Of a stretch of DNA of 64,000 nt, positions 28,793 to 49,222 are shown piece after piece. The stretch spans positions 1 through 64,000 of the forward strand of contig CAVPCT010000001.1 of the NCBI GenBank assembly GCA_963702475.1, in the 5' to 3' direction. The notes under the pieces are model-generated. The model saw nothing but the letters and a program-made list of their open reading frames with translations, was not told the origin of the DNA and searched no databases. The DNA comes from an uncultured Thermoleophilia bacterium. GTDB taxonomy: Bacteria > Actinomycetota > Thermoleophilia > UBA2241. The position numbers and the translations under genes were made by a program. How positions within the stretch are numbered: position 1 is the stretch's first letter; each line of letters begins with the position of its first letter.

Positions 28793-30011
28793 ATGGCCGC
28801 ACTGATCGAGCGCACGCTCACCACCCGGTTGCTGGCGTCCGCCGGCTCCTACCCTGTCGTCTTCCTCACCGGCCCTCGACAGTCGGGCAAGACGACGCTG
28901 GCGCGCGCCACGTTCCCCGAGTTCGCGTACAGTCTCTCTGGAGGTTCTCCAGAATCGCGAGGAAGCCCAGGAAGACCCGCGCGGGTTCCTCGCCCGCCTA
29001 CGCGGCCGGCCGGGCGCGATCCTCGACGAGGTGCAGCGCGTGCCCGACTTGTTCTCGTATCTGCAGGGCGCCGCCGACGAGGGGACTCACGGGCCGTTCG
29101 TGCTCACCGGTTCTCAGCAGTTCCTGCTGAACCAGCACATCGGGCAGACGTTGGCCGGGAGGGTGGCGGTGCTCGAGCTCCTGCCGTTCTCTGTGGCCGA
29201 GCTGACACGCCGGCCGGCGCTCGATCCGACCGCCTGGGAGGCGGGTCTGCGCGGCCGGGACGCGGCCGGCGTCCTCGTCCCGCCGGCGTCCAGTCTCGAC
29301 GAGGCGCTGTTCGCGGGCTTCTACCCGCGAATCCACGACCGCGGGCTCGACCCCGCGCAGTGGCTCGACGGCTACGTGCGCACCTACGTAGAGCGCGATG
29401 CACGCCAGGTCGGGTCCATAGGCGACCTGGCGGCGTTCACACGCTTCGTCGCGCTCTGTGCGGGACGCAGCGGGCAGCTGCTGAACCTGTCGGCGCTGGG
29501 CGCCGACGCGGGCGTCAGCCACACGACGGCGCGTTCGTGGATTTCAGTGCTCGAAGCGAGCTACCTGGTGACGCTGCTCAGGCCGCATCACGCCAACTTC
29601 AACAAGCGCATCGTCAGAACGCCCAAGCTCGTCTTCCTCGATACCGGACTGCTCTGCCGGCTCCTTGGATTGCGCCGGGCGTCGGACCTTGCTGTGCATC
29701 CCCTCCGCGGCGCCGTCTTCGAGAGCTTTGTCGTGGCCGAGCTGGTCAAGGTGTTCCTGCACCACGGTGAGCCGGCGCCGCTCTTCTTCTGGCGCGCCAG
29801 CCACGGCCGCGAGATCGACGCTCTTCTCGACTTCGCCGTGAGCAAAGTGGCGGTGGAGGCGAAGTCGGGGCTGACGGTCGCCGCCGACGCGTTCCGAGGG
29901 CTCGACGCCTACTGCTCGCTCTCAGGCGCGGCCGGCGTGCTGGTCTACGGCGGTGACGAGTCCTACGAGCGCCGGGGGCATCAAGTGCGTGCCTGGTGGA
30001 TGCTCACCTGA
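28793..30011 (+). CDS. AAA_14 ATPase + DUF4143 (COG1373), frameshifted ~28930-28990
   Basis: LTGPRQSGKTT, ILDEVQRVPDL, LTGSQ, TYVERD, RTPKL.FLDTGL, GAVFESFV, REID...VEAK. Confidence 0.85.
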
Positions 30012-46223: not shown

Positions 46224-47216
46224 GTGTCGCTCGTCGTCGTGACCGGTGCTTCCGGGCTCGTGGGGGCCAATCTGGTGCGGGACCTCGTGCGTGAGGGGAG
46301 GCAGGTCCGCGTGCTGGTGCGCGCCGACACGCGCGCCGTGGATGGGCTCCCGGTCGAGCTGGCGCGAGGCGACCTGCGTGACGCGGCGGCCGTGTCGAAG
46401 GCGGTGGCCGGAGCCGACGCGGTGTACCACATGGCCGGTTCCATCAGCGTCGGGCAGCTCCCGCCGGCGTACGTGCACGCCGTCAACGTCGGCGGCACGG
46501 AGAACGTCGTCCGGGCTTGCACGGCGTGGGGCGTGGGGCGGCTGGTCTACTGCAGCTCCGTCCACGCTCTCGACCACCGGCCGGACGAGGTGCCTGTCGA
46601 CGAGCAGCGCCCGCTGTGGACCGACGACCGGCACTGCTCGACCTACGACTTCTCCAAGGCCACCGCGGAGCGCGTCGTGCTCGGCGCCGTCCGGCAGGGA
46701 CTGCACGCGGTCATCGTCAACCCGACTGCCATCGTCGGCCCCTGCGATTTCAAGCCCTCGTGGATCGGCCGGTTCCTCCTCCGGCTGGCTCACGGCCGCC
46801 AGCCGGTGCTGATGGACGCGGGCTTCGACTGGGTGGACGCGCGCGACGTGGCCGCAGGGGCGCGGGCCGCCGAGCGGCTCGGCCGGGCCGGGGAGCGCTA
46901 TCTGCTCTCCGGCCACTGGTGCTCACTGCCCGACATGGCGGCCCTGGTCGCTCGGGCTACGGGCCGGACCCTGCGCAACATCACGCTCCCGGTGGGGTGG
47001 GCGCAGGCGCTGGCCCGCCCGTACGCGTCCGCGAACCGGCTGGTCGGGAGGGTCACGCCGATCACGCCCGAGGCCGTGGAGGCCACACGTCACTGCCGCC
47101 TCGTGAGCCGCGCCAAGGCGGGCGCCGAGCTCGGCTACGCGCCGCGGCCGCTGCCCGAGACGCTGGCCGACACCGTCGCCTGGCTGGACGGCCGCGCGCG
47201 ATACACTCCGTCCTGA
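46224..47216 (+). CDS. NAD-dependent epimerase/dehydratase (dihydroflavonol reductase-like)
   Basis: VTGASGLVG, YDFSK, VNPTAIVGP, VDARDVA. Confidence 0.9.
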   Translation: MSLVVVTGASGLVGANLVRDLVREGRQVRVLVRADTRAVDGLPVELARGDLRDAAAVSKAVAGADAVYHMAGSISVGQLPPAYVHAVNVGGTENVVRACTAWGVGRLVYCSSVHALDHRPDEVPVDEQRPLWTDDRHCSTYDFSKATAERVVLGAVRQGLHAVIVNPTAIVGPCDFKPSWIGRFLLRLAHGRQPVLMDAGFDWVDARDVAAGARAAERLGRAGERYLLSGHWCSLPDMAALVARATGRTLRNITLPVGWAQALARPYASANRLVGRVTPITPEAVEATRHCRLVSRAKAGAELGYAPRPLPETLADTVAWLDGRARYTPS

Positions 47217-47218
47217 CG

Positions 47219-49222
47219 ATGGACGCGAGCGACTTCAAGACATCGGCCTCGGGGCGCGTGGTCACCTGCCCGGAGGGCTACGCAGCCTTCGTACCGGCGC
47301 CGCTGCCTCCGCGGCTGGCGTTCACGCGCGAGCTGGCCGTCGCCCTCTCGCGCGCCGACGCCGCCCTCGGCGTGCTCTCCGGCCTCGGCGGCGAGCTGCC
47401 CGACCCGGCGGCGCTGGCGGCGCCGTTCCTCCGGCAGGAGGCGCTCTGCTCGTCGCGCATCGAGGGCGCGGACGTGAGCCTCACGGAGGTGCTGCTCGAT
47501 GAGATCGCCGCGGCGCCGCCGGGCTCCCGCGCCGACCAGCTCGCCGAGGTGCGCAACGCCCTGGCGACGCTCACCTACGGTGTCGAGGCCGTCGTGCGGT
47601 GGCCGCTGGACCTCGCGCTGGTCCGCAGCCTGCACGCTCGCCTGCTCCGCGGCGAACCCGCCACGGCGCGGGCGCCCGGTGAGTTCCGGACCACCCAGAA
47701 CTGGATCGGACCGCCCGGTGTGACGCCTGCGGAGGCCACGTACGTCCCGCCGCCGGTGCCGGAGATGCTCGGCCTGCTCGAGCAGCTCGAGGCCTTCGTG
47801 GCGGAGCGCGACCGGCTGCCCGACCTCGTGCAGTGTGCCATCGCCCACGCGCAGTTCGAATCCCTGCACCCGTTCGTCGGCGGCAACGGGCGCCTCGGCC
47901 GCATCCTCATCTTGCTGTTCCTCGTCGGGCGCGGCCGGCTCTCCCGGCCGCTGCTGTATCTCTCCGCGTACCTCGAGGCGCACCGCCGCGAGTACTACAC
48001 GCTGCTGCAGCGCGTGCGTACCCGCGGTGAGTGGCGGCCGTGGCTCCTCTTCTTCGCAGAGGGCGTGCGCGAGACGGCGGAGCACGCCCACGTGCAGGCG
48101 CGCGAGCTGCTGCGCCAGCGCGCCCTGTACCGCGGACAGGCGGAGGGCACTGGCCTGCGGCTGGTGGATGAGCTCTTCATCTCGCCGTTCGTGGCCGTGC
48201 GCGAGGTGCGGCGCACGCTGGCGGTGAGCGACGGGACCGCGCGCCGCGCCGTGCTCGACCTCGAGAGGCGCGGGCTCCTCGTGCCCCGGGAGGGCACGAC
48301 CCGCCCGCGCGTCTGGGTGGCACAGCCCATCCTCGACGCCGTCGAGGAGCCCATCGACGCCCTTGTGGGTGAAGCGGGTGAGGCTCCGGAGGGCGAGCCG
48401 CTCAAGTCGCTGCTCGGCTGGGACAGGCGCCCGCGGCGCCTGGCCGACCGCCTCATGACCGAGGCCATGGCCATGGTCGACGTGGCGCGCAGCGCCGGGG
48501 TGGACGTGCGGCTGGTCGGCGGCCTCGCGGTGCGCCGCCACTGCATCGACCTGCGGTTCGCGGACCGCGAGTACTCCGACGTCGACCTCGTCGGCCTCTC
48601 GTCCCAGGGCGAGGCGCTGCGCGAGGTCTTCGCCGGCCTCGGCTACGCCGAGAACCTCTACGTGAGCCAGGCCACCGGCGGGCGGCAGCTCCAGTTCGTC
48701 AAGAAGGAGGGCGTCCACGCCCGCCCTCTCGTCGACCACGTCGACGTCTTTCTCGACGTGATGCGCATGGATCACGACGTCGACGTCCGCGACCGCCTCA
48801 CGCTCGACGACTACGCCATCTCGCCCGTCGACACGCTCATCGCCAAGGCCCAGATCGGGACGATCAACCAGAAGGACGTGCACGACATCATCGCCCTGTG
48901 CAAGGATCTGCCGCTGCGCGAGACCGACGACGACCTCTCGATCTGCGTCCCGTACCTCGCCGAGACGTGCGCGTGGGACTGGGGCCTCTACACCGACCTC
49001 ACGGCCAACCTCAGGATCGTGCTCGACTGGCTGGACGATTTCGGCCTCACCGAACGGGAGAAGGCGCGCGTGTACGGCCGTGTCACCGCGGCCCTCGAGG
49101 CCATCGAGGACGAGGACAAGCCGCTCGGCTGGCGGCTGCGGGCGCGCGTCGGCAGGCGCGTGGCGTGGCGGCGCGAGGTGGAGTGTCAGGACGAGACTCC
49201 CGTCGTTACTCCGCTGGAGTAG
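47219..49222 (+). CDS. Fic family protein fused to a Pol-beta-like nucleotidyltransferase domain
   Basis: AFVPAPLPP, EALCSSRIEG, PGEFRTTQNWIG, HPFVGGNGRLGR, PLLYLS, HTH; from aa ~413 RLVGGLAV...REYSDVDLV...HVDVF...K...NQKD. Confidence 0.85.
   Translation: MDASDFKTSASGRVVTCPEGYAAFVPAPLPPRLAFTRELAVALSRADAALGVLSGLGGELPDPAALAAPFLRQEALCSSRIEGADVSLTEVLLDEIAAAPPGSRADQLAEVRNALATLTYGVEAVVRWPLDLALVRSLHARLLRGEPATARAPGEFRTTQNWIGPPGVTPAEATYVPPPVPEMLGLLEQLEAFVAERDRLPDLVQCAIAHAQFESLHPFVGGNGRLGRILILLFLVGRGRLSRPLLYLSAYLEAHRREYYTLLQRVRTRGEWRPWLLFFAEGVRETAEHAHVQARELLRQRALYRGQAEGTGLRLVDELFISPFVAVREVRRTLAVSDGTARRAVLDLERRGLLVPREGTTRPRVWVAQPILDAVEEPIDALVGEAGEAPEGEPLKSLLGWDRRPRRLADRLMTEAMAMVDVARSAGVDVRLVGGLAVRRHCIDLRFADREYSDVDLVGLSSQGEALREVFAGLGYAENLYVSQATGGRQLQFVKKEGVHARPLVDHVDVFLDVMRMDHDVDVRDRLTLDDYAISPVDTLIAKAQIGTINQKDVHDIIALCKDLPLRETDDDLSICVPYLAETCAWDWGLYTDLTANLRIVLDWLDDFGLTEREKARVYGRVTAALEAIEDEDKPLGWRLRARVGRRVAWRREVECQDETPVVTPLE

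Follow-up and report, generated by a model that had tools for sequence, protein, structure and literature searches.

Fic enzymes and minimal nucleotidyltransferases (NTases) represent the two main bacterial routes by which nucleotides are attached to proteins and to RNA ends. According to the report on SoFic, this protein AMPylates switch I of EF-Tu, thereby blocking translation, and also constitutively deAMPylates EF-Tu; H198 is required for both reactions and E73 for deAMPylation, D202 coordinates a Mg2+ described as indispensable to catalysis, and the winged helix-turn-helix (wHTH) domain binds the promoter of its own gene (bioRxiv 10.64898/2026.07.09.737422). MenT toxins are reported to transfer nucleotides onto the 3' ends of tRNA (PMC7450476, PMC10435456), and a modification close to their active site to regulate them (PMC11375011). 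In BepC, a secreted Fic effector of Bartonella, a Fic motif that lacks the acidic residue is conserved although the known function of the protein is non-enzymatic. Here, we analyzed a gene in a 64,000-nucleotide (nt) stretch of DNA from an uncultured Thermoleophilia bacterium (assembly GCA_963702475.1, contig CAVPCT010000001.1, positions 1 to 64,000; referred to as the window), in which a SoFic-like Fic module and an NTase domain are encoded as one conserved chain. Of the relatives studied so far, those nearest to the two halves target the two members of a single complex: EF-Tu in the case of SoFic and the tRNA 3' end in the case of the MenT toxins.

Both superfamilies are already known, and wherever a source names a fusion relative, the name is 'Fic family protein'. 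Within the literature searched, three features appear to be unpublished: the architecture, the unnamed NTase family with its phosphoesterase pairing, and a clade-wide Asp-to-Gly change in the Fic motif. No account of a Fic-NTase fusion or of the NTP_transf_5 family was found in the literature searched, subscription journals being outside its coverage; within the same coverage, this agrees with the sequence-only reading of the window, a description made from the DNA letters without database searches, which knew of no characterized protein of this architecture. The gene and its parts, with lengths in amino acids (aa), are as follows.

47219..49222, forward strand: the whole gene, a Fic_N-Fic-wHTH-linker-NTase fusion of 667 aa by translation, with the stop codon TAG at 49220-49222.
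47342..47587, forward strand: Fic_N region, residues 42-123, with dimerization and inhibitory helices (Pfam PF13784, E 7.5e-16, 58.4 bits, cut-off 26.7).
47450..47467, forward strand: inhibitory motif SSRIEG, residues 78-83 (S78..E82-G83), of the class II form (S/T)xxxE(G/N); the SoFic equivalent is SSEIE(inh)N, with E73.
47603..47923, forward strand: Fic core domain, residues 129-235 (Pfam PF02661, E 2.3e-15, 57.6 bits, cut-off 24).
47867..47902, forward strand: Fic motif HPFVGGNGRLGR, H217..R228, with Gly221 (GGC, 47879-47881) where a Mg2+-binding Asp or Glu is expected.
48149..48319, forward strand: wHTH, residues ~311-367, a SoFic-type C-terminal domain (full-length model; sub-threshold GntR and SpxR-type matches).
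48344..48433, forward strand: acidic disordered linker, residues 376-405 (~30 residues), with 8 Asp/Glu versus 3 Lys/Arg.
48434..49168, forward strand: minimal Pol-beta-fold NTase with a helical C-lobe, residues ~406-650 (~245), of an unnamed family (AF2 model, predicted local distance difference test score (pLDDT) 91.8, predicted template modeling score (pTM) 0.88).
48518..48523, forward strand: NTase motif I, G434-G435 (hG[GS]; GGLAV, 434-438), invariant in 109/109 fused proteins.
48578..48586, forward strand: NTase motif II, D454-V-D456, the catalytic DxD (YSDVD, 452-456), invariant in 112 family members and in 109/109 fused proteins.
48743..48745, forward strand: third carboxylate D509 (in VDVFLD; VDVF, 508-511), present in at least 90% of the 112 family members and invariant in the fused set.
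48845..48847, forward strand: Lys543 in the helical lobe (alongside R526, W588, R641 and G645), all invariant alignment columns with a presumed role.

The N-terminal half belongs to the Fic/Fido family, with both PF02661 and PF13784 above their gathering scores. Its Fic_N region aligns to the N-terminal helices of SoFic, and S78-S-R-I-E82-G83 lies N-terminal of the Fic core in alignment with the SoFic SSEIEN; this position of (S/T)xxxE(G/N) is what we take to define class II Fic proteins. The SoFic model of PADLOC, a library with no curated cut-off, covers residues 20-376 over its full length (E 2.8e-94). Among solved structures, the nearest are 7cb8, an unnamed Fic-wHTH protein (E 5e-40, residues 37-377), and the SoFic entries 3eqx, 3zcn and 9tc4 (~1e-36; phmmer range over these structures, 5e-40 to 2e-36). 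Throughout residues 19-377, the N-terminal helices, SxxxE[GN], Fic core and wHTH follow in the same order as in these proteins, and the catalytic His, Asn and Arg as well as the inhibitory Glu are all present. Both the PADLOC and the 7cb8 alignments extend through the wHTH, which is modeled with helices at 311-319, 327-334 and 338-350 and strands at 324-326, 355-361 and 364-367. Because the score against the NCBIfam SoFic equivalog (NF046030) is 123.4 bits versus a cut-off of 550, the protein is SoFic-like rather than an orthologue. It also differs from SoFic by a Gly in place of the Mg2+-binding D202, by an appended segment of ~290 residues comprising the linker and the NTase domain, and by a housekeeping rather than a defense context. 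At the Fic motif, where SoFic has HPFIDGNGRTGR and 7cb8 has HPFTDGNGRIGR, every position of the canonical AMPylating motif HxFx(D/E)GNGRxxR fits except G221. BepC, whose motif HxFxKGNGRxxR is likewise conserved without an acidic metal ligand, offers a parallel, and two fused relatives carry Arg at this position; however, in BepC a Lys replaces the Mg2+, whereas a Gly is found here, and BepC has an unrelated FIC-OB-BID architecture.

Pol-beta NTases are recognized by an alpha/beta core with an hG[GS] motif, a [DE]x[DE] motif and a third carboxylate. The C-terminal half carries G434-G435, D454-x-D456 and D509, which together with the fold matches place it in this superfamily; residues 550-553 form its NQKD motif. 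The wording of the superfamily motifs follows PMC7450476 in part. In alignment A1, which contains the window domain and 111 stand-alone relatives (112 sequences), the invariant columns D68, D70, R140, K157, W202, R255 and G259 correspond to D454, D456, R526, K543, W588, R641 and G645, so the helical lobe carries an invariant Lys (K543) as well as invariant Arg residues; the columns R45, G48 (the first Gly of motif I), R64, D123 (equivalent to D509) and H133 are kept in at least 90% of the sequences. At the level of sequence, the GG/DxD/D catalytic set of the NTase half is intact.

Named families are scarcely approached by this domain. No match was obtained for it in Pfam (E ≤ 10) or in PADLOC (E ≤ 1), nor in NCBIfam past residue 367, and a profile search of PDB returned only non-significant NTase matches, the best being ANT(2'') (E 0.026) and an LnuA-type protein (E 0.12). 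An exhaustive HMMER search with residues 387-667 against 1.84 billion representatives yielded 1,403 relatives at E ≤ 1e-3, of which 826 remain at E ≤ 1e-10 and 77 at E ≤ 1e-30; stand-alone proteins of 240-290 aa with 30-45% identity make up most of the 150 listed. When 16 stand-alone relatives were compared with Pfam, none exceeded a family threshold in the homologous region. The only Pfam family they approach is PF14907 (NTP_transf_5, an uncharacterized NTase), with sub-threshold matches in 11 of the 16 and a best score of 20.8 bits (gathering score 31.2), and the window domain has no match to it; neither is thus assigned to NTP_transf_5. Sub-threshold ANT(2'')/Aminoglyc_resit matches occur in 3 of the 16, and DUF1814/AbiEii (PF08843), a family defined in part by C-terminal motifs III and IV, gave no Pfam match with the window domain (E ≤ 10) or with the 16 relatives (E ≤ 1). 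Look-alikes in the ESM-Atlas are ~260-aa actinobacterial 'hypothetical proteins'; NTP_transf_5 appears in 3 of the 30 nearest clusters there, covering 15% of the members in the one cluster shown.

Structural comparison did give matches. Among the Foldseek matches to PDB listed to E 0.03, nearly all are NTases, including MenT1 (8e-4), LnuA (1.5e-3), 5uvd, viral poly(A) synthases, MenT3, CCA-adding enzymes and CD-NTases. A Foldseek-independent VIA search of 48,161 chains, in which Z values below 8 may be due to chance according to the note of the tool, gave the following matches.

MenT1: Z 12.7 (root-mean-square deviation 3.4 A, 172 of 195 residues aligned, 14% identity).
ANT(2'')-Ia: Z 12.3.
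5uvd: Z 11.3.
JHP933: Z 10.6.
LnuA: Z 10.6.
MenT3/TglT: Z 10.0.
MenT4: Z 9.0.
TM1012: Z 8.6.
AbiEi antitoxin: Z 7.7.
Pol beta, TUTases and others: Z 4-5.6.

Since the top eight of these (Z 8.6-12.7) are all NTases and lie above the chance level, the Pol-beta assignment is confirmed by structure. MenT1 (Rv0078A), of the MenT/AbiEii group, is the best structural match, sharing the bi-lobed shape, Pol-beta motifs I and II and conserved residues of the helical lobe; the window protein differs in its 14% identity, in having no AbiEii/DUF1814 match in the Pfam search above and in the lack of an adjacent antitoxin gene in the window, and an activity on tRNA is at most predicted for it. Several features that had been proposed from the letters alone therefore hold: an N-terminal Fic module with inhibitory helix and HTH (by the Pfam, PADLOC and PDB matches and the modeled winged helix), an acidic linker between the halves, and a ~255-aa Pol-beta-superfamily domain, the last being supported by structure prediction, fold search and the invariant GG/DxD/D residues and not by sequence search. 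In the full-length model (pLDDT 83.9, pTM 0.82), residues 384-405 of the linker are the sole long stretch of low confidence (pLDDT <50), and both the length and the sequence of the linker vary among relatives. Complex prediction of the Fic-wHTH half (residues 1-385) with the NTase half (405-667) gave scores of 0.00, 0.33 and 0.00, which speak neither for nor against contact between the halves.

The same NTase domain was also seen in other fusions, with an N-terminal AhpC/TSA peroxiredoxin, with an N-terminal MarR-type winged helix (AbiEi-like) and with a C-terminal phosphoribosyltransferase (P0162, P0200 and P0207).

The Fic-NTase fusion is conserved. Searching the C-terminal region against proteins of 366-1,168 aa identified at least 268 protein clusters that carry it (E ≤ 1e-3). 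Among the 120 clusters listed, nearly all have 600-760 aa with Fic_N and Fic, and the few shorter ones are fragments starting inside the Fic or wHTH part. In GTDB, with one genome per species and a single domain as the query (which retrieves close relatives only), 74 loci from 60 metagenome-assembled genomes (MAGs) encode close relatives of the fused gene (by record title, 43 from Thermoleophilia, 15 from Actinomycetes, 12 from Actinomycetota, three from 'delta-proteobacterial' contigs and one from a Gemmatimonadales contig). Their states are listed below.

At least one full-length copy in a single frame: 57/74 loci, 59 copies in all.
Both halves present in different frames: 9/74 loci.
Truncated or gapped: 3/74 loci.
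Cut at a contig end: 1/74 loci.
NTase domain alone: 4/74 loci.

No Fic gene was found upstream of the four NTase-only genes. The frame breaks within the linker in three loci (L029, L058 and L071), and in each case the conserved peptide resumes in another frame, in L029 twice within 100 nt; these breaks are therefore indels, owing to sequencing error or decay, and not two-gene forms. Hence, the search for the combined domain architecture that the sequence-only reading had proposed reveals a true, conserved fusion, and the observation that it had named as refuting, relatives with the halves as separate adjacent genes, did not occur among the 74 loci.

The same conclusion is reached from the integrity of the gene itself. 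The segment 47219..49222 (+) translates without a stop into 667 residues, so the uninterrupted ORF described earlier, with all of its quoted motifs, was recovered as such, and it aligns end to end with 108 full-length fused relatives. For read support, contigs of four public sequencing runs from four studies were compared with the gene; the best-matching run may stem from the very sample behind the assembly and is therefore not fully independent. No insertion or deletion is listed over the gene in these contigs. One X1 contig of 1,928 nt covers 47447-49222 without a gap, and contigs of X2 and X3 also span the linker, which leaves no trace of the lost stop that had been considered near 48340-48455. 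The sole linker variant is a synonymous change (48343 C>T, third base of Val375), and no variant is listed in the codon of G221. An artifact, with two neighboring genes fused through the loss of a stop codon, a frameshift or a chimeric assembly, could draw on the nine loci with halves in different frames, three of them breaking in the linker, and on one low-depth X1 contig joining 48265 to 48580. However, the same single frame in 57/74 loci and in 108 database proteins, the contigs of four runs without an indel, the similar codon usage of both halves (GC content at third codon positions (GC3) of 0.94 and 0.95, host-like in both) and the indel signature at the broken loci leave this explanation with practically no chance, and we regard it as effectively refuted.

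The history of the fused family was examined with FastTree using local support values. The closest stand-alone Fic-wHTH proteins have ~384 aa and are 52-56% identical to the Fic half, and motif position 221 is Asp in all 62 of them. In the 109 fused proteins, by comparison, this position is Gly in 80, Glu in 16, Asp in 10, Arg in two and Ala in one. In the Fic-half tree (109 fused rows plus 20 of the 62 stand-alone rows, taken as every third and used as the root), the fused rows form one clade with support 99. A basal fused clade has Glu (16 rows) or Arg (two rows), and the other 91 rows have Gly except for one reversal to Asp (10 rows, HPFVDSNGRLGR) and one Ala. The NTase tree contains 28 fused rows (every fourth of alignment A2), 25 phosphoesterase-paired and 11 unpaired stand-alone genes; a long-branch-join warning was raised for some of its stand-alone rows. 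Here too, the fused rows form one clade with support 99, and nearest to it are seven stand-alone genes without a phosphoesterase. Relative to the stand-alone sisters, family-wide shifts in the Fic half are confined to 13 positions, among them D221G, the sole change within the catalytic core, and R158T, located in the flap region. In all 109 fused proteins, H217, N223, G224, R225, G227, R228, E82 and G83 are invariant. From both trees and the position shifts, it appears that a single fusion was followed by loss of the metal ligand while the rest of the site stayed constant. On the rows sampled, a single origin of the fusion is consistent with the data, the Asp-to-Gly change is placed after the fusion, in the main clade that includes the window gene, and, judged by its residues, the Fic half is not decaying. 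The Gly that had been noticed at the acidic motif position is thus a derived trait of the fused family. Both active sites are conserved across the fused family, which would seem to be large, old and vertically inherited in Thermoleophilia and Actinomycetota of soil and sediment. A Fic active site without its metal ligand, fixed as Asp-to-Gly in a large clade with one reversal, amounts to a natural experiment.

Two fused relatives (P0063 and P0107) have Arg at the metal-ligand position (HPFLRGNGRLGR), which recalls the Lys of BepC.

With the metal ligand gone, the Fic half might no longer be an enzyme and would, as proposed for BepC, be a nucleotide-binding, target-docking or DNA-binding scaffold that localizes or switches the NTase as the sole catalyst. 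The Gly in 80 of the 109 fused proteins and the Arg in two would fit such a role, as does the DNA binding reported for the wHTH of SoFic. Nevertheless, the eight residues of the Fic half that are invariant throughout a deep clade are more than docking seems to need (though BepC also retains the motif), and since Glu persists in the basal clade and one subclade has returned to Asp, catalysis was probably present in the fused ancestor. We consider a purely non-enzymatic Fic half unlikely. A changed role of this half after the loss of the metal ligand is plausible from its sequence.

Outside the fused clade, the NTase domain has a different companion. The NTase family occurs in 26 of 201 sampled genomes of the phylum, among which the fused form was seen only in the genome studied here. 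A ~320-aa calcineurin-like metallophosphoesterase directly adjoins 22 of the 28 stand-alone NTase loci of other genomes (among L079-L102 and L107), or 20 of 26 when the unpublished genomes G120 (L091) and G018 (L094) are left out; the two genes are mostly in the same orientation and 0-10 nt apart. It is also found beside both stand-alone copies of the present genome (L078:425-2250, at G000:C3 near 618846, and L077, at G000:C2 near 24816) and beside an extra NTase copy in L038. In contrast, it lies beside the fused gene in none of the 74 loci. The NTase and the phosphoesterase look like an undescribed two-gene module, and given 22/28 versus 0/74 loci, the NTase family normally travels with a phospho(di)esterase, and in the fused clade with a Fic domain.

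At L077 (G000:C2:24816-25607, reverse strand), the stand-alone paralogue, whose identity to the fused domain is 36%, contains a single in-frame TGA, which may point to a pseudogene, a sequencing error or recoding.

We tentatively favor, while giving it somewhat less than an even chance, a reading in which the NTase half is a transferase and the Fic-wHTH half serves in cis as its antagonist or regulator, like the phosphoesterase partner, the loss of the metal ligand having shifted the Fic half away from AMP transfer. By analogy with MenT1 and MenT3 acting on tRNA, the NTase half would add a nucleotide to a hydroxyl group of a macromolecule, for which an RNA or tRNA 3' end or a protein is the likeliest candidate, and the Fic-wHTH half would be a built-in antagonist or regulator taking the place of the calcineurin-like phosphoesterase. 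Weak or altered AMP transfer is to be expected of a Fic half that has lost a metal ligand described as essential. Keeping the catalytic His, Asn and Arg and the deAMPylation Glu, this half would remove a nucleoside monophosphate or gate the NTase according to nucleotide or target, and the wHTH would autoregulate its own gene, as reported for SoFic. The substrates, the direction of regulation and the link to EF-Tu and tRNA are points that we infer from these relatives.

Several points weigh against such a division of labor. The SoFic Asp is described as part of an essential Mg2+ site, so the Gly may cripple deAMPylation as well as AMPylation, which would favor the non-catalytic scaffold discussed above. 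The comparison of the Fic half with the phosphoesterase is an analogy drawn from gene neighborhood. Furthermore, the fused NTases and their seven nearest stand-alone relatives form a clade without the phosphoesterase, so that its replacement by the Fic domain is deduced rather than observed. Finally, the domain resembles ANT(2'')-Ia (Z 12.3) and LnuA (Z 10.6), both of them transferases for small molecules, as much as it does MenT1 (Z 12.7); because they match alike, the substrate class is not fixed by the fold.

The last point bears on a further explanation, namely that the NTase is a transferase of the ANT(2'')/Lnu type acting on an antibiotic or metabolite, with the Fic-wHTH part as a fused transcriptional regulator. 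ANT(2'')-Ia and LnuA/LinB share the minimal Pol-beta fold, rank among the best structural matches and are also the best, albeit non-significant, profile matches in PDB (E 0.026 and 0.12), over the GG..DxD region; the sub-threshold Aminoglyc_resit matches in 3 of the 16 stand-alone relatives point the same way. However, those enzymes are shorter, have no C-terminal helical lobe and act on small molecules; the window domain is ~70-80 residues longer, and its conserved helical lobe aligns with MenT1, JHP933, 5uvd and MenT3 and not with ANT/Lnu, as seen from the model ranges. There is no resistance context here, the partner of the stand-alone proteins being a phosphoesterase, and it would be left unexplained why the entire Fic active site is conserved. 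A small-molecule substrate is thus highly improbable.

A bolder version of the favored antagonist reading can be formulated. The NTase family would be the writer of a reversible nucleotidylylation, with either the adjacent phosphoesterase or the Mg2+-ligand-free Fic domain of the same chain, turned into a module for NMP removal or gating, as the eraser, and the Fic half would dock on switch I of EF-Tu in the manner of SoFic, so that the MenT-like NTase reaches the 3' end of the aminoacyl-tRNA or else EF-Tu. We regard this version as speculative and distinctly unlikely; if true, a writer and eraser acting on the EF-Tu-tRNA ternary complex would provide slow-growing soil actinobacteria with a self-resetting translation brake. 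In the sequence-only reading, two nucleotidyl-transfer chemistries in one chain were interpreted as a possible writer/eraser or toxin/regulator unit. The domain identities, the fusion and the Gly of that interpretation stand, while the two-chemistry unit stays conjectural; it would be favored by the phosphoesterase pairing of the stand-alone NTases. Domain shuffling of this sort is not very surprising in itself, but the lead is well-founded and testable, and it provides a handle on an unnamed NTase family of ~1,400 clusters that are now 'hypothetical' in databases.

In the window, the gene is preceded by genes for a MarR regulator, a CDF transporter, a BNR/TIG protein and an SDR protein and is followed, 55 nt downstream, by a convergent AraC-GyrI regulator gene; other neighbors encode a hydrolase and a methyltransferase. 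Save for one weak BNR repeat match, none of these neighbors recurs at the 74 related loci, so no conserved functional signal attaches to the 2-nt coupling with the SDR gene. Many distant relatives (55-60% identity) sit in a conserved housekeeping block in the order nitroreductase, Fic-NTase, S9 prolyl-oligopeptidase with PD40 repeats, often a second Fic-NTase, two ~95-aa proteins, CMD, CbiZ and an MTHFR-like protein, and transketolase is also among the neighbors in conserved synteny. The S9 gene cluster occurs at 35 of the 74 loci, an association that may reflect either a functional link or inherited synteny. The genome studied here (4.3 Mb in nine contigs, 93.8% complete, 6.5% contamination) has a second fused copy, which is 60% identical, also carries HPFVGGNGRLGR and lies inside the housekeeping block, and it has two stand-alone NTase paralogues.

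Gene context bears on the possibility that the protein is a single-chain abortive-infection or defense toxin, a SoFic-type defense protein with a second, acquired effector against translation, in which the Fic half would AMPylate EF-Tu and the NTase half would block tRNA 3' ends upon phage attack. Such a role is suggested by the PADLOC SoFic match (residues 20-376, E 2.8e-94), by the description of SoFic as a toxic anti-phage AMPylase in PMC12249575, by the presence of MenT toxins, of the AbiEii/DUF1814 family according to PMC7450476, among the nearest NTase folds, and by the two or three fused copies in several MAGs, with two in this genome. On the other hand, the neighbors in conserved synteny are of the housekeeping type, and no integrase, phage or defense gene was found among the 25 neighbor-gene representatives scanned. 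Except for a generic methyltransferase domain, no PADLOC match lies within ~12 kb of the gene, no close relative of the fused protein was found in the viral contigs searched, and the window has no small adjacent ORF of antitoxin type, including the AS1 type downstream, where 55 nt separate the stop codon from the convergent AraC/GyrI gene. In addition, the NCBIfam SoFic score is 123 versus a cut-off of 550, and the Mg2+ ligand for AMP transfer has been lost. A defense role is not supported by the gene context, and we consider it doubtful; the family looks like a vertically inherited chromosomal one with paralogues rather than defense-island or mobile cargo. Annotation of defense systems calls for caution here, as PADLOC-type tools would label such genes 'SoFic' despite their housekeeping context.

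The ORF at 29031..30011 (+), 17 kb upstream of the gene, matches PADLOC PDC-S01 (E 2.7e-75) and is the only strong match to the defense library among the 24 window ORFs scanned. Tandem fused paralogues, usually with the PD40 plus S9 gene between them, were observed in some Thermoleophilia MAGs, at L011, L031, L033, L038, L040, L043, L046 (736-6894), L053, L057 and L058. The ~95-aa ORFs that had grouped with the fused family were rejected as members; they are unrelated small proteins, joined to it only via one mis-merged ORF in L043.

The X1 contig that connects 48265 to 48580 has a depth of 4.8x and two other letters between these positions; the net change of -312 nt is in frame and would remove NTase motif I together with the linker and the wing of the wHTH. 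This junction may stem from a variant with a deletion, from a chimera of paralogues or from an error in assembly. No RNA data set is among the sequencing runs listed as containing the gene, and a promoter and terminator scan gave nothing useful, two predicted 'terminators' falling within the coding sequence.

The start codon ATG at 47219 lies 2 nt past the TGA of the upstream NAD-dependent epimerase/SDR gene (46224..47216), and the N-terminus MDASDFK.. agrees with the consensus start in 108 fused and 62 stand-alone relatives. A longer listed ORF beginning at 46517 (an extension of 234 codons, 46517..47218) was rejected as a high-GC artifact because GC3 falls to 0.57 upstream of 47219 from 0.94 inside the gene (GC at codon positions 1/2/3 of 0.93/0.74/0.57 versus 0.77/0.47/0.94). 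The extension overlaps the 3' part of the SDR gene, read in a different frame, and exemplifies spurious long ORFs in DNA of 72-75% GC.

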